22,416 nt of DNA from Sulfurimonadaceae bacterium (lineage in GTDB: Bacteria > Campylobacterota > Campylobacteria > Campylobacterales > Sulfurimonadaceae), in assembly GCA_041571435.1 (NCBI GenBank), contig JBFFUI010000037.1, positions 1-22,416 on the forward strand, written 5' to 3'. The translations under genes were made by a program, and so were the position numbers. Position 1 is the first letter of the stretch, and each line of letters begins with the position of its first letter. The notes beneath the pieces are model-generated. The model did no database searches and was not told the DNA's origin. It saw only the letters and a list, made by a program, of their open reading frames with translations. Of the stretch, positions 1,207 through 22,416 are shown piece by piece.

Positions 1207-1776
1207 ATGGAAAACTTTTCTGACTTTATCTCCCAAAGTCACAGTGTCACACTTATGGTGTTGGCACTTCTCTCGATCTACTTCATACTGGTAAACTGGG
1301 TCTTTTACTACCGTTTTTTCTCTCTTAACAGCTGGATAGAACGTGAAACACTCTCGCTTGAACAACTTCTTATGGGTGGTGAAAACGTAGCAACGAATGC
1401 TTACCTCTACAAGTTTTTAAGTGCCAGTTCCAAAGTAACAAGAGAGATCTTTGATCTTGGGATGTTCTCCGCAAGCAAAGAGTCTACAAAAGGGCTCTCA
1501 TACCTCTCAGTTGTTGCATCAACTTCACCGTTTATCGGCCTGTTTGGTACAGTTGTCTCTATTTTGGACACCTTTGATAATATTGGCGGTGCCGGTGGCA
1601 TGAACATGATCGCCGCAGGCGTCTCCGATGCGCTAATAGCCACTGCCGGCGGAATTTTTGTCGCGATCTTTGCGTACACCTATCACCAGATATTAAAGCG
1701 CCGTGCCTTTGAGCTTAACGGTCTTATCCGTATGCAACGTGATTCCGTACTTTCACAGATGGCTGAAGAGGCATAA
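1207..1776 (+). CDS. tolQ: MotA/TolQ/ExbB proton channel protein (TolQ-like)
   Basis: Three hydrophobic segments with SPFIGLFGTV and ALIATAGG motifs; first gene of a tol-pal cluster. Confidence 0.9.
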   Translation: MENFSDFISQSHSVTLMVLALLSIYFILVNWVFYYRFFSLNSWIERETLSLEQLLMGGENVATNAYLYKFLSASSKVTREIFDLGMFSASKESTKGLSYLSVVASTSPFIGLFGTVVSILDTFDNIGGAGGMNMIAAGVSDALIATAGGIFVAIFAYTYHQILKRRAFELNGLIRMQRDSVLSQMAEEA

Positions 1777-2171
1777 TGAACGATTTCGATTGGGAAGAAT
1801 CTCCGGAACTTAACATCACGCCGCTTGTTGACGTGATGCTTGTCCTTTTGGCTATTCTCATGGTCATCGCACCAACTGTCATCTATGAAGAGATGATTAA
1901 ACTGCCGCAAGGTTCTGCAACAAAACAGATCGAGAAAAAAGCGCCTGTGCATATCACTGTTGACGAAAACGGCAACGTAGCTGTCAACAAAGAGAATTTC
2001 GAGCTTGCAGGTTTTACCGATAACTTCTATCGTTATGCTGAAAAACTTGACAAAGAGGCGACGGTGCTGATCAGTGCAGACAAGACATTGGATTATGGCC
2101 TGGTCATGTCTATTCTCGGTGCGGTCAAACAAGCGGGATTTACCGAAGTCTCACTTGCTACTAACGGTTAA
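1776..2171 (+). CDS. tolR: ExbD/TolR family protein
   Basis: LNITPLVDVMLVLL with the conserved Asp, and ISADK..L.YG.VM..L...K.AGF; TAATG stop/start coupling with tolQ. Confidence 0.92.
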   Translation: MNDFDWEESPELNITPLVDVMLVLLAILMVIAPTVIYEEMIKLPQGSATKQIEKKAPVHITVDENGNVAVNKENFELAGFTDNFYRYAEKLDKEATVLISADKTLDYGLVMSILGAVKQAGFTEVSLATNG

Positions 2172-2211
2172 TCGCAACACGTTACACTTTCAAAAACAGG
2201 CAGGGTAGGTA

Positions 2212-2994
2212 ATGGTGCAAAGCAGCCAAGAAGATCGCTATTTTTACATAAGCGGCCTTATCTCTTTCAGCCTTTTTTTCGCCGTTGTCCTTCTCTTTAT
2301 TCTGGTCATCCTTCACAAAAGCTCGATTGAGACCTTTGCGATGCAAAAAGACAACTACATATCGGTTTCACTTGACATGGTCGTCCCCTTACCAACAAAA
2401 AATAATGCAAAACCCGATCCGAAACCGACACCTAAAGAGGAACCCTTACCCGAACCTGAACCTGTTACGGACGAGATGGAAACGACACCCGAAACGGTCG
2501 AAACGGACGTCTCTTCTCTCTTTGACGATGTATGGACACAGAGTGCCGATACAAAAGTAGAGAAGAAAGAGGAGAAGATCGATTCGAAACGTCTGGCTGC
2601 TATAGAAAAACGGATAGAGAAGAAAGAGGCCACACAAACACATAAGGCGAGTGACACGATCAAAACCTTAGATCTGGTAAAGCCCTCTATAGAAGTGGTC
2701 GGCGGGTCAGCTTCCACGGCACCAGAGGTAAATGAATATTTGGCTAAAATACACGCACAAGTCAAAGCCAAGTTCTATCCACCGGCCAGCAGTGAAGGCG
2801 AAAGTGCCAAGGTCCGTGTGCGACTTGATGCAAATGGAAATGTCACCAGTTACCGGGTTCTAGTCTATTCCGGTGTCCCTATTTTCAACGAAGAAGTTGA
2901 CAGATTGGATAGACGCCTGAAGCGGATGACATTTCCAAAAAATCCAGACGGGAAGTCGATCTCGCTGGACATTATTTTAACAGTTGAGGAGTAA
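2212..2994 (+). CDS. TolA/TonB-type energy transducer (N-terminal TM, Pro/Lys/Glu-rich linker, TonB_C-like domain)
   Basis: Single TM, PKPDPKPTPKEEPLPEPEP linker and a C-terminal TonB-like domain; lies between tolR and tolB. Confidence 0.85.
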   Translation: MVQSSQEDRYFYISGLISFSLFFAVVLLFILVILHKSSIETFAMQKDNYISVSLDMVVPLPTKNNAKPDPKPTPKEEPLPEPEPVTDEMETTPETVETDVSSLFDDVWTQSADTKVEKKEEKIDSKRLAAIEKRIEKKEATQTHKASDTIKTLDLVKPSIEVVGGSASTAPEVNEYLAKIHAQVKAKFYPPASSEGESAKVRVRLDANGNVTSYRVLVYSGVPIFNEEVDRLDRRLKRMTFPKNPDGKSISLDIILTVEE

Positions 2995-2996
2995 TA

Positions 2997-4244
2997 ATGC
3001 GTATTATCTTTGGAGTGATCTTTTCAGCACTTATATTGTGGGGTTCGGATGCCACCATCGAGGTCAAAAAGAGTGTTGATTCGTTTCCTTCTATTGCAGT
3101 AGAAGATGCGTCTGTCGATTTCAGCGACGGTCTAAGTCAGCGTTTTTTTCGTGTCATGGTAAGTGATTTGAATGTACTGAGTATCTTCAATGTCGATCGT
3201 GACTATGTCAAAGTTGACTTTGGTGACGAGCATGTCGCTGACACGCATAAAGAGTTAGATTATGTACTTCGCTACCAGCTGGTAGATGATAACGGAGTGA
3301 TGGTCGTAAATGTCAATCTTATCAACAACGACAAGGTGATGCATGAACTTAACTATCGTATCAAAAACCCAAAACAGTATGTCTTTTTAGTCCATACAAT
3401 CGCAGCTGCTATCAATGATTTTATGGGTGAAGATCCGGTTGACTGGATGAAAGAGAAAGTAATCATATCCAGATCGACAAGCCCGCGTACTTCAGAGATC
3501 CTGATCACCGACTATACCTTGAGCTATCAGTTCTCGATCAAGCGCACCGGTCTGAACGTCTTTCCTAAATGGACAGACGAGAGTAAACAATATTTTTACT
3601 ACACAAGCCTGACCAGTGGAACGCCTGAACTGCGCAAACACGGTGTATATGATAAAAGTGATGTCTCTATACTATCATCAGACGGTATGCTGGTCTGTTC
3701 GGATGTTAGTGAGGATGGTAAAAAACTGCTGCTTACAATGGCACCGAAAGGACAGCCGGATATTTATGAATATGACACCTCTTCCAAAAAGCTGACGCGG
3801 ATCACCAAATACAGCGGCATCGATGTTAATGCACAATACATGGCAGATGGCAGAATCGCTTTTATCTCAAATCGCCTGGGTTATCCGAATGTTTTCTCTA
3901 AACAGATCGCTTCTCAAGCAACCGAGCAGATGGTCTATGTCGGAAAAAGCAATTCCTCATGTACGGCGCATGACAACTACATCATCTATAAAGCACGTGA
4001 AAGTTCAAACGCATTTTCGAACAACACCTTTAATCTGCATCTGATTTCGACTAAAACAGACTTCATCCGTCGATTGACGGTAACCGGTATTAATGAACAC
4101 CCTCTCTTCTCGCGAGACGGCGGTACGGTACTATTTGTTAAAAAATACAAAAACCAGAGCTCCATCGGTGTGATTCGCCTTAACCAGAACAAAAATTATC
4201 TTTTCCCGCTTACAGGCGGTCCTATACAGTCGATCGACTGGTAA
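2997..4244 (+). CDS. tolB: Tol-Pal system beta-propeller protein TolB
   Basis: Signal peptide; PD40-like repeats (FPKW, SDVSEDG, IAFISNRLGYP, PLFSRDG); C-terminal SIDW; upstream of pal. Confidence 0.95.
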   Translation: MRIIFGVIFSALILWGSDATIEVKKSVDSFPSIAVEDASVDFSDGLSQRFFRVMVSDLNVLSIFNVDRDYVKVDFGDEHVADTHKELDYVLRYQLVDDNGVMVVNVNLINNDKVMHELNYRIKNPKQYVFLVHTIAAAINDFMGEDPVDWMKEKVIISRSTSPRTSEILITDYTLSYQFSIKRTGLNVFPKWTDESKQYFYYTSLTSGTPELRKHGVYDKSDVSILSSDGMLVCSDVSEDGKKLLLTMAPKGQPDIYEYDTSSKKLTRITKYSGIDVNAQYMADGRIAFISNRLGYPNVFSKQIASQATEQMVYVGKSNSSCTAHDNYIIYKARESSNAFSNNTFNLHLISTKTDFIRRLTVTGINEHPLFSRDGGTVLFVKKYKNQSSIGVIRLNQNKNYLFPLTGGPIQSIDW

Positions 4245-4278
4245 TCCTTCCATAGTTGGGAAGTAATATGACCTCTTT

Positions 4279-4303
4279 GGTCCCTTGAAATAGGGGCCTT
4301 TTT
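4279..4303 (+). terminator. Probable intrinsic terminator after tolB
   Basis: Hairpin GGTCCCT-tgaaat-AGGGGCC (one G-U pair) followed by TTTTT. Confidence 0.6.
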
Positions 4304-4423
4304 CTCTTTTTCACCTAATGTCAGATTTTAAAAACTTTTCCACGATCAAGTTTACTCTTTGTTGCATATTCTTCATTATAATTCTGAAAATTGATACGAT
4401 TAGCTTCTCTTTATAAAAAAAAA

Positions 4424-4434
4424 GCTAAAATCGC
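4424..4434 (+). promoter_or_regulatory. Putative housekeeping-sigma -10 element for pal
   Basis: gcTAAAATcgc about 30 nt upstream of the pal ATG, in an AT-rich region; the same 11-mer precedes slyD. Confidence 0.55.
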
Positions 4435-4459
4435 CTATCAAACTATCCGAAGGAATAAA

Positions 4460-5020
4460 ATGAAAGCTTTACTTTACGCAAGTACGATTACTGCGATGTT
4501 AGTATTTACAGGGTGTGGCGGTACTGAACCGACAGTCGATGATTCGGCAGCAAATGCTAACCAGGAAGAGATTAATATTGTTGACGAAGGCAGTGCAGCA
4601 GATACACAAGCAGGTATTAAGTCGACTGATCTCGATGCAGGAGCATTGACACTAGAGAGTATTGAAGCAAAAATGTCGCCTATCTATTTTGGATTTGACA
4701 AATACAAATTGGCGGATGAAGATATTGATACACTACGTCAAAACGTGAAACTTGTTAAAAGTGATACTGAAGCTATGAACATCGCAAGTAACTATTCACT
4801 TAAACTTGAAGGTAATTGTGATGAGTGGGGCTCAGACGAATATAACTTCGCACTTGGTCTTAAGCGTGCTAACGCGGTTAAAGATGAGCTGATCAATGAC
4901 GGTATTGCTGCCGAGCGTATCAACTTGGTAAGTTATGGTTCAAGTAATCCTGTCTGTACTGAAAAAACACAAGAGTGCTGGTCTAAAAACCGTCGTGTCG
5001 ACTTCAAACTTCTACCATAG
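4460..5020 (+). CDS. pal: Peptidoglycan-associated lipoprotein Pal (OmpA-C domain)
   Basis: ATG 4460 with AAGGA RBS is preferred over the track's TTG 4391. Lipobox FTGC; EGNCDEWGSDEYNFALGLKRA and KNRRVDF motifs. Confidence 0.95.
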   Translation: MKALLYASTITAMLVFTGCGGTEPTVDDSAANANQEEINIVDEGSAADTQAGIKSTDLDAGALTLESIEAKMSPIYFGFDKYKLADEDIDTLRQNVKLVKSDTEAMNIASNYSLKLEGNCDEWGSDEYNFALGLKRANAVKDELINDGIAAERINLVSYGSSNPVCTEKTQECWSKNRRVDFKLLP

Positions 5021-5027
5021 ATTGTAA

Positions 5028-5921
5028 ATGCGTATCGCACTATCTCTTTCCCTTTTTTTTCTTTCTTTCACCCTTTTAGCCGATGAACCATCGGCATTTG
5101 GTGCAGGTGACCTTGACAGCGACAACCCGTATGGGCTTACTGCAGCTGAAAAGAAGATTCTTCAGAACAACAAGTCGTTAAAGCAGAACAATCGCAAACT
5201 CAACTCCCAAAAAAGTGAGATTGAGTCTCTTCGAGAGCGTATTGACGGGCTTCAGTCTGTTCTGGAATCGATTGCGATGAAATCGCAGAAAAACAAAGTT
5301 GCGCTAGGTGATATTACCAAAACACGCGAAAATGAAGGTGCCAATACCCAAGAGCGCCTACTGGCACTTGAAACGCGGATCGCAACCAACAATGAAAATA
5401 TTGTCCAACTTAAAACGGCGATCGAAGAGTTGGGCAAGCTTATTGATGAACAGAGTGTGACAAAAGAAGAGCATAATGCACTGGTAGAAGATGTCAATGC
5501 CTTTAAGCTACTGGTTGCAAATGAACTGAAAAAGAAGGCTAAACAGAGCAGTTCAACAGTTAGTAGCGGTGATCTTGCCACACAGGCAAAGAGACATTAT
5601 GACAAGAAGAACTATTCAAAAGCTCTAAACGATTACAAAGAACTGGTGAACCGCAAATATAAACCTGCCTACAGCCACTATATGATTGCGCAATGCTACT
5701 TTGCACTGAATGACTACGGTCCGGCTATCGCGCACTATAAAGAGAGCGCATCCCGCTATAAGAAAGCATCGTACATGCCGACGTTGATGTTACGTACTGC
5801 TTATTCAATGGAAAAAACGGGAGACGTTATAAATGCGAAAAAGTTTTATAATGCTGTTATCGCCAAATACCCGGGTTCCAGTGAAGCTCAAAAAGCAGAA
5901 AGTTACCTGTCAAAGCTGTAA
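5028..5921 (+). CDS. cpoB: CpoB/YbgF-like TPR protein of the tol-pal cluster
   Basis: Signal peptide, EPSAFGAG N-terminus, long coiled coil and C-terminal TPRs ending KYPGSSEAQKA; directly after pal. Confidence 0.85.
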   Translation: MRIALSLSLFFLSFTLLADEPSAFGAGDLDSDNPYGLTAAEKKILQNNKSLKQNNRKLNSQKSEIESLRERIDGLQSVLESIAMKSQKNKVALGDITKTRENEGANTQERLLALETRIATNNENIVQLKTAIEELGKLIDEQSVTKEEHNALVEDVNAFKLLVANELKKKAKQSSSTVSSGDLATQAKRHYDKKNYSKALNDYKELVNRKYKPAYSHYMIAQCYFALNDYGPAIAHYKESASRYKKASYMPTLMLRTAYSMEKTGDVINAKKFYNAVIAKYPGSSEAQKAESYLSKL

Positions 5922-10600: not shown

Positions 10601-11806
10601 CTAGATACCGATGAAACTGAGCTGACCTTCGGTGACTTTGAACTCTACGATAGGTGTGAAGTTCGGGTCCGTAAGTTTTGAACGCATCGCCTGCGCATCA
10701 CTGTTTTCAACCTCAAGGGTCACCTTCTTTTGATAATAAGGCACCCCTTTTTCATCATGGTTTTGTGAAATAAGGTCAAAGGTCAGCTCCCTTTTTTCTG
10801 CATTGTAGGCAACATTTCGGATCAACGGCGAGCCATATTTTACAAAGAGTGCCATCTGCAAAGCATCTAATGCACGTTGATTTAGCGATGGCTTTTCCTC
10901 AATGAGTACCAGAGAGATCTCACGGCTCATCTCTTGGTCAAAAAGCGCCGATGCTAGTTCTTGGAGGGAGAGCTTCTCCGGATAGTGCAGTTGCTGCAGG
11001 CACATTGTATATGTCTTTCCATATTTTTTGTACCAGCTGTTCGCACCGCTGCCAAGATTGACGTATTTGGCATAACTTTCATGCTCACTGTCCGTCGTTG
11101 ATGTCCAGTAGATATTAGGGGCCACAATGAGCGGTTTATTACGGTAGAGCTGCAGCAGTTCTGTGTCAGTCGGCAGCATGAAATCGCTGCTGTGATAGCC
11201 GTAGGTGGTGATATCGAGATTACGGCAGTACTCTGTTGCCGCCTGCCAGTTCATCTTTTCTGCTTCGTCCTCCGCGTAATACCAGATACGGTCTCCTGTG
11301 GAGAAAAGATGCTCTTCTTTCAGCCACGATATCGTACCGTTGGCTTTTGAGATAGATATCTTGAGCTGTATGTTCAATGTTATGTCATTGTCGACAGTGA
11401 TCCACTTTTCATAGGTTTTGTAACCGGGTTGTGTAATCTGGATATGATATTGTCCAGGTGAAAGCCACATGCCGTCACTGTATTTTGGCTTTATATTCAA
11501 AATCCTGATGGTTGCAGAAGGTTGCGTATTGATGGTCAGTCTGAAGGTGCTTCGCTGCTCTTCAAGGTTGGAGAGAGGGATCTTGCCTTCTTGGGTTATG
11601 GCGAGATCACCATCTATGGAGAGAACCGATACAGATTGCCCCTGTTTAAAAGGCGGGGCGTCTTTTTTGACATACATTGTCACTGGAAACACTATCTCTT
11701 TGACTTGCTCTATCTCTTTAGGTTGTTTGGTACAACCTGTAAACAAAAGCGAAGTGGAGAGTACCGAGAACATTACAACGGTGATGATATTTACCAAATG
11801 TCTCAA
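10601..11806 (-). CDS. Lipoprotein with PEGA-like and DUF1566/Lcl-like domains
   Basis: TTG 11806 lies 7 nt after AGAGGAG and gives signal MRHLVNIITVVMFSVLSTSLLFTG-C. PEGA-like LTINTQP...PGQYHIQITQPGY; DUF1566-like MNWQAATEYCRNL...LPT.TEL...YWTST...MCL. Confidence 0.7.
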   Translation of the reverse strand: MRHLVNIITVVMFSVLSTSLLFTGCTKQPKEIEQVKEIVFPVTMYVKKDAPPFKQGQSVSVLSIDGDLAITQEGKIPLSNLEEQRSTFRLTINTQPSATIRILNIKPKYSDGMWLSPGQYHIQITQPGYKTYEKWITVDNDITLNIQLKISISKANGTISWLKEEHLFSTGDRIWYYAEDEAEKMNWQAATEYCRNLDITTYGYHSSDFMLPTDTELLQLYRNKPLIVAPNIYWTSTTDSEHESYAKYVNLGSGANSWYKKYGKTYTMCLQQLHYPEKLSLQELASALFDQEMSREISLVLIEEKPSLNQRALDALQMALFVKYGSPLIRNVAYNAEKRELTFDLISQNHDEKGVPYYQKKVTLEVENSDAQAMRSKLTDPNFTPIVEFKVTEGQLSFIGI

Positions 11807-12025
11807 ACTGATACTCCTCTTTTTGAACGTGAACCTTTTACGGATATTCATGACATATTGTAAATCAGTGCACCTCTTAAACCCCTGAATATAACCTAAA
11901 ACAGTCATTTGTGAACACTATATAAAGTCAAAAATGGTAGGATATAAAAAATAAAAAGGTTACTGGAGACTTTGCGTTCTGGTACTTTTGTGTTTTAGAT
12001 ACCGCTTATCTAGAAAAAGGGAACC

Positions 12026-19552: not shown

Positions 19553-22416
19553 ATGAAAGTGCATACAGAAAATGACTGGTTACAACGATTTGTAAACTGG
19601 TTTAAAGGAACAGCTCTCGTCGCTGCAATATTGTTTAGTGGGACAGCATTGCAAGCAAACGTAGGCTTTACATTGGAAGGGTGTCGCGCGAGTGACACAA
19701 TGAACTACCATCAAGTTACGCTGCAAGCGGGAGATGGTAGTTGGGTGCCCACATATATATGTGATGATAAAGCATATACAACGGGTAATTTAAAAGGTTG
19801 GGCAGAGCTGGACTATGTGCCTCACCGCGTAACTGTAGAAAATAAAGGTTCAACTCCTGAAACCTTTACCTTTACCGTCGGTGGTGACTTCCTTCAGACA
19901 GAAGGCGGCGATCTTCGCGGATGGGATGACATTACCGTTCTAGTCCTTGACCCTGATCTTTCGGATCAGGCTTGTTTCGATATTCAATCACAGAGTACTC
20001 AGGCATTGCTGATCACACCAGATAATGAAGGTGCCGGTGGTGTTTTTACCACGATCTATCGTCAAGTCAATGTTGTCGGCTTACCCGCCGGTGCACGATG
20101 TGTGGCACACTATAATGCCCGACTCGCTTTGGGCTCTCACCTCTATCCGGGCTCATCCCTTCAATCAAACTTATGGAATGAAAACCTGGAATCCGGTGGT
20201 ATTGGTGAAAAACGTGTGCAACTTCCAGATGTCCTGGCACAAGACTTCTCCAAAAACATGCAGGCATTGCAAGGTGGTGGATATGATTGGACAATCACCA
20301 AATCAACACCAAACAGCACTGTAGACTTCGGGGATACCTGTGCACCAGGTGCGGTCTTGTCTAAACCTGTCAGCATTACGGTTGAATGGGAAAGAGGACC
20401 ATTAACGCCTTCTGGAACAGTCAATGTCACAACGATCATCTCAGGCAGTAATACGGCGAAACGCGATCTCAATGTTTCTATCGCTGATACCATCTACAGT
20501 GGCATGACACCTTTGAGCGTCCTGCCTGATCCTCAGACATCAACATGTGGAGACCATATATTGACGGCTGGATATGCAGGTGAGATCTGTAGGAATACGT
20601 ACGAATTGACTACAGCACAAGCGGTTGATCTTAACGACAAAGCTGTTTTGACCTACAACATCTACTATGACCCAGTAATTTTGGCGGAAGGACCGGTTTA
20701 TACAAAAAATGCCGAGGCATCTGCTGTAGTAGAGTCTTCTGGTGAAAACACTAATCCGACTGCTGTGATCACAGACCACGAATGGATCACCTCTTTAGGT
20801 AATATATTCAGTTATTCTGTTGCTTCACCTACCAGCGGTTCTTTGGATGCTCCTTATGTAGCAGATACAGTAACACAAGGTGATGTTAATTGGACATCAA
20901 CGACACAAAGCGGCAGTGGTTCGGTTACACTTAATAAAATGATCTCGCTTAACGGGCCTGCAGTAAGTGGTCCGAATGACAAGTTGCAAGACCATGCTTA
21001 TCTGAATGGAGCTGATGGTCTTCAACGTGATTACGGGCCTTTGGCAATCGATCTGAGTGCTGACGCAACCGTTACGTTGACGATTACGAAAACCATACCG
21101 GACATTTTGCAAGGTGCGGAAGAAGTGACGTTTACGTTTACTGTTTCTAAATCAGGCTATTCGGAAGATGTGAATGTGACCTTTGCTGCCGGTGATGAAC
21201 TGTCTAAAGATATTGTCGTTTCAGATCTGGAGCCAGGTACCTACTCTGTAGTAGAACATAGTGTACCTGGTTTTGCCCCAGAGGGTGGTGCAACCAAAGA
21301 AAATATAGATCTTACACTTCCTACCTGTTCTACATCGGTTGTCTTTGACAATGACCTGACCGTTGATCAACATGTCCGTGTCGTAAAAGTAACAGTTCCG
21401 GTAACTGTAGATGGTCAAAATGCTGACGGGGACTGGAATATGACGCTCTACAAAGTTGTCGGCGGTAATGAGATCTTTGTGTCGACTTTACTTACAACAG
21501 CCGGTGGGGGAACAGATGAATTTACCATTCCTGGTAATTATCTTGATGAAGGTAACTACACCATCAAAGAGACGATGAAAGCCGGCTGGTATCAGTCAGA
21601 AAGAGGTGCAGGTTGTGACTTTAGCGTTGATTACCCTGCGGATGTCAACAGAACGTATGAGTGTATGTACACAAATACCAAGTTTGCAGAAATAATTGTT
21701 GCAAAAGTAACTGATCCGGCCGGTTCCAATGTAGACTTTACCTTTGCTCAGGACATGAACGGAACGCCGTTGACATTGAAACACGGTTGGGCACAAGCCT
21801 ATAATGAACTTATGCCGAATACCTATACGGTAACGGAAAACGATCCGACACCGGCATTTGACCTTGTCGATGTAACATGTGTCGAGACAAATACGGACTA
21901 CGCTGACCCTAACAGAATTCAAGTTGACGGTGCTACCGCAACAATCGACCTTATAGCAGGTGAAACAGTTACATGTACCTATACCAACCGTGAACGCGGT
22001 ATGGTTGAAGTGACGAAAATCGAAAACGGTATTGCTCCGGTTCATGAGTGGACCTTTACGTTGAGCGGACCTGATGTGGGTACTGTCAGCGGTACGACAC
22101 CACCGAATCCTCTGGATTTCAATGGTGCGAAACTGATCCCTGGCGAGACCTATACCTTGTGTGAAAAAGCTGTACCGGTTGCGTGGGAGACGATATGGAC
22201 ACTTAATGGAAATGGTGTTATACCGTATAACCCTTATGCCGGTACGGACGCGTCGAACGAAGATCGATGTATCGACTTTAATGTGACAGCGGGTCAAACG
22301 GTAGGTTTCACTGTTAATAATAATTATACGCCGCCGGGTGGTGAACCGAGAACGATCGGTTACTGGAAGAACTGGAACGACTGTTCCAATGGAAATCAGT
22401 ATGACAAAGCTCAAGA
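19553..22416 (+). CDS. Large secreted adhesin/pilin-like protein with tandem CnaB/SpaA (prealbumin-like) domains; 3'-truncated, at least 954 aa; absent from the ORF track
   Basis: Manually translated with no stop from ATG 19553 (AAAGGA RBS at 19541) to the window end. 35-aa signal peptide ending LQA; Thr/Val/Gly/Asp-rich; four repeats of xxxK...(P)G.Y...E...(F/Y/V)xN. Confidence 0.92.
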   Translation, partial: MKVHTENDWLQRFVNWFKGTALVAAILFSGTALQANVGFTLEGCRASDTMNYHQVTLQAGDGSWVPTYICDDKAYTTGNLKGWAELDYVPHRVTVENKGSTPETFTFTVGGDFLQTEGGDLRGWDDITVLVLDPDLSDQACFDIQSQSTQALLITPDNEGAGGVFTTIYRQVNVVGLPAGARCVAHYNARLALGSHLYPGSSLQSNLWNENLESGGIGEKRVQLPDVLAQDFSKNMQALQGGGYDWTITKSTPNSTVDFGDTCAPGAVLSKPVSITVEWERGPLTPSGTVNVTTIISGSNTAKRDLNVSIADTIYSGMTPLSVLPDPQTSTCGDHILTAGYAGEICRNTYELTTAQAVDLNDKAVLTYNIYYDPVILAEGPVYTKNAEASAVVESSGENTNPTAVITDHEWITSLGNIFSYSVASPTSGSLDAPYVADTVTQGDVNWTSTTQSGSGSVTLNKMISLNGPAVSGPNDKLQDHAYLNGADGLQRDYGPLAIDLSADATVTLTITKTIPDILQGAEEVTFTFTVSKSGYSEDVNVTFAAGDELSKDIVVSDLEPGTYSVVEHSVPGFAPEGGATKENIDLTLPTCSTSVVFDNDLTVDQHVRVVKVTVPVTVDGQNADGDWNMTLYKVVGGNEIFVSTLLTTAGGGTDEFTIPGNYLDEGNYTIKETMKAGWYQSERGAGCDFSVDYPADVNRTYECMYTNTKFAEIIVAKVTDPAGSNVDFTFAQDMNGTPLTLKHGWAQAYNELMPNTYTVTENDPTPAFDLVDVTCVETNTDYADPNRIQVDGATATIDLIAGETVTCTYTNRERGMVEVTKIENGIAPVHEWTFTLSGPDVGTVSGTTPPNPLDFNGAKLIPGETYTLCEKAVPVAWETIWTLNGNGVIPYNPYAGTDASNEDRCIDFNVTAGQTVGFTVNNNYTPPGGEPRTIGYWKNWNDCSNGNQYDKAQ

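Follow-up and report, generated by a model that had tools for sequence, protein, structure and literature searches.

We analysed a 22,416-nucleotide stretch of DNA from a Sulfurimonadaceae bacterium of the phylum Campylobacterota (GenBank assembly GCA_041571435.1, contig JBFFUI010000037.1). This stretch, hereafter the window, is an entire contig (C37) of an assembly comprising 66 contigs and 2.16 Mb. Most of the window is taken up by housekeeping genes (ATP synthase, a Tol-Pal-like cluster, FabD, a GGDEF-EAL protein, MutY and EamA), and its right-hand end is occupied by one long open frame on the forward strand, which begins at position 19553 and runs for 954 codons with no stop up to the window end (the last full codon ends at 22414). 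This gene is the subject of the present report. In our judgement, its product is likely to be a Sec-exported, sortase-independent protein of ~1080 amino acids (aa) that comprises seven beta-sandwich domains and a helical C-terminus, and that includes a self-locking rod of the CnaB/SpaA_4 type.

The gene is truncated at its 3' end because contig C37 stops there, and the open 3' end left by the contig break also explains why the frame is absent from a list of open reading frames (ORFs) compiled without open ends. The initial annotation had stated that the gene was missed by the ORF track, and indeed the sole frame listed for this region once open ends are excluded is a 272-aa antisense ORF (21596..22414, reverse strand) whose Arg/Ile-rich translation is most likely that of a shadow ORF. 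Full-length relatives range from 1074 to 1092 aa, and the length of the complete window protein is estimated from these. When the whole assembly was searched with the C-termini of two relatives, P0002 and P0003, the missing C-terminus was not found. Contig C38 begins inside a UPF0029 gene and then continues in the gene order of locus L003. The closest named loci, L002 and L003, are both contigs of Sulfurimonadaceae metagenome-assembled genomes (MAGs) from the Campylobacterota. Given this synteny, C37 and C38 flank a single gap, which by comparison with L003 spans ~2.4 kb and would hold the last ~125 codons of the gene. The same gene is also broken over contig ends (C78 and C60) in G045, a genome from the same genus. 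No paralog is present in the genome at E<=1e-3.

Four tandem CnaB-like domains

Residues 505-926 form four tandem homologous domains, as in stalks, according to both profile comparison (hhalign) and a structure model. The initial annotation had described four domains of the Gram-positive pilin type between nucleotides 21071 and 22321 (residues 507..923), each with a first-strand Lys, the Glu of a YxxxE motif and a last-strand Asn. All 12 of the 12 motif residues are present where they had been placed (Table 1), and four successive K..YxxxE..N units were seen in none of 2000 shuffles of residues 505-926. Of the 7999 candidates scored in a homolog search, 149 proteins reached E<=0.001, and the 120 listed ones, which range from 94% to ~30% identity, were aligned with the window protein. 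Residues 500-930 contain 14 Lys, 27 Glu and 29 Asn, and the four most conserved residues of each kind among these 120 homologs are exactly the 12 triad residues. The full triad is kept in 111/120 homologs for domain 1, 83/120 for domain 2, 75/120 for domain 3 and 100/120 for domain 4. Most homologs lacking a full triad have either alignment gaps (21 read 'KE-' in domain 2 and 15 are all gap in domain 3) or an Asn-to-Asp replacement. The single Cys pair noted earlier in each of domains 2-4 is conserved as well, with 688/704 co-occurring in 79, 776/808 in 81 and 870/906 in 105 of the 120 homologs, and the paired residues sit on strands within one domain in the model of P0002 described below.

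A whole-protein Pfam scan places SpaA_4 (PF24514) on residues 714-813 with 36.1 bits against a cut-off of 27.3, and domain 3 scanned alone reaches 41.6 bits over profile positions 1-106 of 107. In the same whole-protein scan, SpaA (PF17802) scores 22.0 bits on domain 1, narrowly under its cut-off of 23.1. Using domain sub-alignments drawn from 70 family members, hhalign relates all six pairs among domains 1-4 with probabilities of 93.6-99.2% (E 1e-7 to 9e-20). Lys, Glu and Asn occupy equivalent columns across these comparisons, and they are aligned even between the divergent domain 4 and domain 3 (100 columns). As a control, the three head sub-domains were compared with domains 1-4, and 11 of the 12 pairs gave probabilities of at most 1.0%, with one pair at 57%. 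Precomputed Pfam assignments for the 120 listed homologs include PF24514 and/or PF17802 in 98, none in 16 and other families only in 6. No NCBIfam family matches the window protein at E<=1; among its relatives, P0002 and P0069 likewise have no match, and P0007 and P0024 have only chance matches far below cut-off. Calcium-binding SdrD_B repeats (PF17210) were considered as well and rejected, as the cut-off is 29.7 bits and the match reached only 12.2.

Costa et al. 2025 (PMC12617251) used Isopeptor to scan the AlphaFold database and from the hits created SpaA_4, a CnaB-like family for which a Lys-Glu-Asn bond is predicted and whose exemplar carries K704/E766/N814 in a domain spanning 700-816. 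Isopeptor called bonds in 378 of the 567 SpaA_4 domains in that database, and disulfides were predicted in 376 SpaA_4 isopeptide domains (99.5%; Table S4 of the same source). Domain 3 of the window protein closely follows this pattern, in that its Lys, Glu and Asn lie at the profile offsets of the exemplar and a Cys pair accompanies the triad. In contrast, domains 1, 2 and 4 lie below or outside the Pfam models.

The structure model that we used is an AlphaFold2 model of the relative P0002 rather than of the window protein. P0002 is full-length (1079 aa) and shares 94% identity with the window protein; the two do not differ at any of the 12 triad residues or 13 conserved Cys, and their numbering is offset by 12. 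The model was built from an alignment of 70 sequences, these being the members 950-1200 aa long out of 121 rows. Its mean predicted local distance difference test (pLDDT) score is 87.8, with about 85-95 over domains 1-4. K501, K600, K706 and K810 of P0002 are each located on the first strand of the respective domain, E556, E661, E750 and E859 at the end of a central strand, and N588, N696, N800 and N911 on the last strand. At the level of strand assignment, this agrees with the first-strand Lys and last-strand Asn described in the initial annotation.

Fold comparisons lead to the isopeptide-containing pilins. The best Foldseek matches in the PDB, which are pilus proteins and adhesins of Gram-positive bacteria composed of isopeptide domains, are PitA (E 1.8e-14), SpaC, the Bacillus anthracis TIE protein, T-antigen, Cna B repeats, SdrD, BcpA and RrgC. 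In VIA, residues 592-804 of the P0002 model (domains 2-3) superpose on Spy0128 with Z 11.4 over 177 residues at 16% identity, and residues 593-804 superpose on residues 290-719 of Cpa; domain 4 is barely covered by the VIA rows. Taken together, Spy0128, Cpa/Spy0125 and RrgC (3b2m, 2xid/4bug, 4oq1) match the fold with Z 9.3-11.4 and have the same placement of Lys on the first strand and Asn on the last strand, along with the Glu, but sequence identity is only 16-20%. Counting from the ends of the aligned ranges, K600 of P0002 falls on Lys297 of Cpa and N800 falls on Asn715, a mapping that is approximate because VIA reports no more than the two end residues of each aligned range. Lys297 and Asn715 are the isopeptide residues listed for Cpa in Table 1 of PMC12617251. 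When the family profile was searched against the PDB, the sole match was RrgC (4OQ1), with a marginal E of 0.055. In this alignment, the Glu of the domain-1 'YxVxE' motif corresponds to E222, the last-strand Asn to N252 and the domain-2 Lys to K264. Mutation of K155, E222 and N252 of RrgC abolished isopeptide formation (PMC5487036).

These findings would also be compatible with a SpaA-like fold in which Lys, Glu and Asn are kept for packing or for some other interaction, with disulfides alone providing stability. Such an explanation draws on the fact that SpaA_4 bonds are so far predictions (PMC12617251) and that roughly a third of the 567 SpaA_4 domains were not called by Isopeptor. However, the triads are jointly near-invariant across four divergent copies, they align with RrgC residues that are essential by experiment, and the substitute for Asn is mainly Asp, which is also bond-competent. 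We consider this explanation quite improbable. The SpaA_4 match, the hhalign probabilities and the fold matches to isopeptide pilins support the assignment of domains 1-4 to the CnaB/SpaA type, as had been proposed at the outset.

Head and C-terminal domains

The features of the gene are collected in Table 1. Residues 1-35 are a probable Sec signal peptide, as judged from their composition, and residues 1-22 of the P0002 model have pLDDT values below 50.

Table 1. Positions of the gene, its predicted domains and the Tol-Pal-like cluster in the window
Feature	Positions	Strand	Basis or distinguishing residues
Exported multi-domain protein gene, first 954 codons	19553..22414	+	Open ORF; full-length relatives 1074-1092 aa
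Probable Sec signal peptide, residues 1-35	19553..19657	+	Basic n-region, hydrophobic GTALVAAILFSGTAL, LQA before N36; by inspection
Head domain N1, CnaA-like immunoglobulin (Ig) fold, residues 36-227	19658..20233	+	Model fold; conserved Cys 44/70 and 141/183
Head domain N2, beta-sandwich, residues 229-394	20237..20734	+	Model fold; nearly invariant K250, N300, D312, D362, C263
Head domain N3, beta-sandwich, residues 402-504	20756..21064	+	Model; nearly invariant D408, E410, K462, D480
Domain 1, CnaB-like, residues 505-603; K513/E568/N600, C592	21065..21361	+	Sub-threshold SpaA_2/SpaA/SpaA_4; hhalign to domain 3 96.2%
Domain 2, CnaB-like, residues 604-711; K612/E673/N708, Cys 688/704	21362..21685	+	hhalign to domain 3 99.2%
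Domain 3, Pfam SpaA_4, residues 712-815; K718/E762/N812, Cys 776/808	21686..21997	+	PF24514
Domain 4, divergent CnaB-like, residues 816-926; K822/E871/N923, Cys 870/906	21998..22330	+	hhalign to domain 3 97.6%
C-terminal helical Cys-containing domain, start (GGEPRTIGYWKNW..., C944)	22331..22414	+	Relatives; ~125 codons missing
Tol-Pal-like cluster: MotA/ExbB, ExbD, TonB_2 C-terminal domain, 415-aa ORF, OmpA-family, TPR	1207-5921	+	

The head (residues 36-504) has no Pfam match in any family, and in the ESM Atlas it falls only into unnamed or weak clusters (best 0.87). Its model nevertheless superposes on shaft pilins, on antigen I/II (AgI/II) and on a Mobiluncus adhesin, and on this basis the head would be composed of pilin- or adhesin-type Ig folds too. 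In VIA, residues 22-215 of the P0002 model (N1) superpose on shaft pilins at their CnaA-like middle domains (PilA 8wxd, Z 11.2, root-mean-square deviation 2.8 Å, 136 residues), with EbpB, SpaD and the Ig domains of PrgB matching as well. Residues 217-382 (N2) align with transglutaminase beta-barrel and AgI/II C-terminal domains. The C-terminal domains of SspB (2wza) and SpaP (3opu) match model residues 22-382 over ~250 residues with Z 9.5-10.1, although the window head has no sequence-level relation to antigen I/II (no Pfam match). The Mobiluncus mulieris adhesin (5u6f), which carries disulfide, isopeptide and ester cross-links, is likewise an Ig-like chain and aligns with model residues 232-591 (Z 10.0). 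It differs in being from a Gram-positive organism, and no Thr/Gln/His ester set is found among the near-invariant residues of the window head. A thioester domain was also considered for the head, given its 'LQSNLW' stretch, and was dropped because residues 36-504 match no thioester domain family and have Ig-like fold matches.

Two sets of charged residues in the head are strongly conserved, with K250, N300, D312 and D362 kept in 112-114 and D408, E410, K462 and D480 kept in 108-119 of the 120 homologs. From their conservation, these sets in N2 and N3 may represent additional cross-links of the CnaA type, possibly between Lys and Asp. The two domains also have in common a motif that reads 'LND-x-A' or 'LSD-x-A'. 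A further candidate cross-link involves the Cys of domain 1, C592 (21326-21328), which is nearly invariant (117/120 homologs). C263 in N2 (20339-20341) and C592 are both present in 113/120 homologs and each is without another partner in its own domain, which suggests a disulfide between the two domains by which the head would be fastened to the stalk.

In relatives, the sequence after GGEPRTIGYWKNW continues as a helical domain of ~150 aa with four Cys and the ending '...NNGxLCP', and the helices occupy residues 923-1076 in the P0002 model. No named family was found for this domain in Pfam and NCBIfam scans, and its best ESM Atlas cluster (0.90) is unnamed. The domain is conserved over both monoderm and diderm phyla. 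In one relative, P0019 from Sulfurovum sp. zt1-1, residues 942-1103 hold a true SdrD_B domain (89.6 bits) in place of the helical domain, and after it a hydrophobic C-terminal tail with basic residues that resembles a membrane anchor or a sorting signal. Given that P0019 carries SdrD_B at this place, the C-terminal module appears to be exchangeable.

Genomic context and spread of the family

The initial annotation had assigned the DNA to a diderm member of the Campylobacterota, and this identification holds. The window encodes a Tol-Pal-like cluster, the genome encodes two secretins, and the closest loci are from Sulfurimonadaceae. Judged by gene content, the Tol-Pal-like genes and the secretins mark the envelope as diderm. 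Within the cluster, the 415-aa ORF in the TolB position (2997-4244) has no Pfam match at E<=1e-5. Another possible envelope or surface protein is encoded elsewhere in the window (10601-11908, reverse strand); it is 435 aa long and contains PEGA and Lcl_C domains.

Since pilins and pilus tip adhesins are the top structural matches, one might propose that a sortase polymerises the protein into a pilus, in the Gram-positive style. YPKN is the pilin motif that supplies the polymerisation lysine. Neither this motif nor an LPXTG-like signal occurs in the window protein fragment or in five full-length relatives, and the window protein also lacks PKN. The relatives end instead in a folded helical domain. 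Furthermore, the absence of a sortase noted earlier for the window extends to the whole genome (completeness estimate 100%), in which the sortase family PF04203 has 0 matches, whereas the control was positive in three Gram-positive genomes. Thus, unlike the pilins of Gram-positive bacteria, the window protein is found in a diderm, has extra Cys pairs and comes without sortase, LPXTG or pilin motif. A role as a sortase-assembled pilin is extremely improbable.

Given the distribution of the family, its architecture also seems independent of envelope type and of sortases, since members occur in both monoderm and diderm phyla. A pattern search of the GTDB species genomes gave 139 matching stretches, of which 111 encode a relative; 80 loci were kept, many of which match the query from about residue 23 to residue 1076. 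The 80 loci belong to the Pseudomonadota (Marinobacterium, Vogesella, Pseudogulbenkiania, Aeromonas, Zobellella, Oceanimonas and Photobacterium), Myxococcota, Nitrospiraceae, Acidobacteriota, Deinococcota and Chloroflexota, and there are many from the Actinomycetota. A query with the head only retrieved 367 representatives (50% identity) at E<=0.001 among 1.84 billion, of which 219 reach E<=1e-30. Within the Sulfurimonadaceae, the gene is patchy and was found in 6 of 120 other sampled genomes and in 2 of 23 genera. In some relatives the entire gene occurs as two paralogs in tandem, as with P0007 and P0008 (WCX49_04185 and WCX49_04190) of Sulfurimonas sp. HSL-1656 and at G010:C1:820719-827270.

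At L003, where the relative is 86% identical, MutY and EamA lie upstream as in the window, and a convergent NHL-repeat gene followed by UPF0029 and EamA lies downstream. The sole widely recurring neighbour, by crude ORF clustering, is a gene for a secreted metalloprotease of the gametolysin-like Peptidase_M11 family, which is located directly downstream and convergent in 22 of the 80 loci, several of which are too short to display the downstream flank. This metalloprotease also bears NPCBM_assoc and Big_9/cadherin-like domains. The 22 loci (for example L006, L009, L010, L012, L013, L017, L019, L020, L022 and L023) are all from Pseudomonadota, except for one Nitrospiraceae MAG (L079). A genome search for Peptidase_M11 found none, but its control was silent and the result carries no weight.

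This recurrent neighbour bears on the question of whether the protein is an adhesin at all. The four domains might well cross-link as proposed in a protein that is not a cell-surface adhesin but a scaffold resistant to proteases, either released or periplasmic, in which activity resides in the C-terminal domain or the head. Such a scaffold may act beside the M11 metalloprotease. Such a role would suit relatives that lack an anchor or sorting signal, the retention of the C-terminal domain in monoderm and diderm phyla alike, the location of the gene among housekeeping genes and the metalloprotease gene itself. Nevertheless, Peptidase_M11 is absent downstream at the closest Sulfurimonadaceae locus, L003, and its convergent orientation means that the two genes share no operon. 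In addition, the head is similar to domains that serve Gram-positive adhesins for binding or as stalks. We therefore regard a scaffold of this kind as somewhat unlikely.

Proposed mechanism, prior work and significance

We favour the view that the protein is an exported, self-locking rod. After export by Sec, it would fold in the oxidising periplasm, where the amine of the first-strand Lys would attack the side-chain amide of the last-strand Asn within the hydrophobic core of each domain. Ammonia would be lost in this reaction, which would be assisted by the buried Glu on the strand with the YxxxE motif. The resulting Lys-Asn bond would covalently link the first and last strands of every domain, and a conserved Cys pair could form a disulfide as a second staple. 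The outcome would be a stalk that resists protease, heat and pulling force, and that connects the helical C-terminal domain with an N-terminal head, which is composed of CnaA-like and AgI/II-like Ig domains and is probably the part that binds. By analogy with characterised domains, we infer that isopeptide bonds form in domains 1-4 and that the domain Cys pairs form disulfides. The protein may also pass beyond the periplasm and act as an adhesin.

Several observations weigh against this view. Against the SpaA and Cna_B profiles that the initial annotation had proposed as a check, only domain 3 scores above cut-off; domains 1 and 2 fall under the Pfam cut-offs of SpaA_2, SpaA and SpaA_4 (E 0.03-0.07), and domain 4 scanned singly matches no Pfam family. 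The structure model belongs to a relative and gives triad geometry at the level of strand assignment only, and when residues 501-954 of the window protein were folded from the single sequence, the mean pLDDT was 37. A PDB search with the single sequence of domains 2-3 gave only chance matches (RPN11, E ~1), in addition to the marginal RrgC match of the family profile. Table 1 of PMC12617251 gives no experimental structure for SpaA_4. Neither the head nor the C-terminal domain has a match to a named family, we found no anchor, no outer-membrane export signal and no partner gene, and the recurrent neighbour in Pseudomonadota is a secreted metalloprotease gene rather than an adhesion gene.

The initial annotation had presented Gram-positive-type domains in a Gram-negative protein as a surprise, and in this respect it overstated the case. 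A doubly cross-linked stalk of the Gram-positive type in Gram-negative bacteria has already been published as a prediction, in that isopeptide domains have been reported in significant number in Bacteroidota and in Pseudomonadota, both Gram-negative (PMC12617251). Table S5 of that survey lists Actinomycetota, Pseudomonadota, Chloroflexota, Acidobacteriota and Deinococcota, all of which also carry the family of the window protein. The main text and one supplement file of PMC12617251 contain no mention of Campylobacterota, with phyla of fewer than 100 counts pooled as 'other', and the combination of a head, four domains and a helical C-terminus is not described in the accessible parts of that source. 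We found nothing relevant in the literature on isopeptide bonds in Sulfurimonas.

Intramolecular isopeptide domains have been characterised in surface proteins of Gram-negative bacteria in the form of CLIPPER/DUF11, from the Acinetobacter silvestris fibrillar adhesin (9IFR), and of Mfa5 from Porphyromonas gingivalis. CLIPPER has a disulfide alongside the isopeptide bond, a combination that may also exist in domains 2-4 of the window protein. However, its fold is CnaA-like and its catalyst an Asp, in contrast to the CnaB-like domains described here with their Glu. Before CLIPPER, Mfa5 was the sole structurally characterised intramolecular isopeptide domain outside Gram-positive bacteria (PMC12617251). 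CnaB-type self-locking has so far been proven by experiment in Gram-positive pilins only.

A more ambitious interpretation can be constructed from the same observations. The protein would then be the first CnaB-type isopeptide protein of the Campylobacterota and would belong to an undescribed, sortase-independent family of monoderms and diderms (367 representatives), with extra head cross-links (K250/D312/D362 and K462/D408-E410/D480), the C263-C592 staple and an invariant 'PRTIGYWKNW' helical Cys domain that serves as a new attachment or effector module. Taken as a whole, we think that this interpretation is unlikely to be correct.

Because the general principle has already been published, the gain from our analysis is incremental. 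The new part is modest, and consists of a member from the Campylobacterota, three of four domains outside the Pfam models, and a fixed architecture with an unnamed head and C-terminus. There is also a lesson for annotation. NCBI names for the relatives include 'MSCRAMM family protein', 'SpaA-like prealbumin fold domain-containing protein' and 'prealbumin-like fold domain-containing protein', and a well-delimited family is still called 'hypothetical' or, misleadingly, 'MSCRAMM'. If the bonds do form, the four compact domains, each potentially with an isopeptide bond and a disulfide, would be candidates for stable scaffolds or for tag/catcher parts. Their formation would also extend CnaB-type self-locking domains to the free-living, sulfur-oxidising Campylobacterota.

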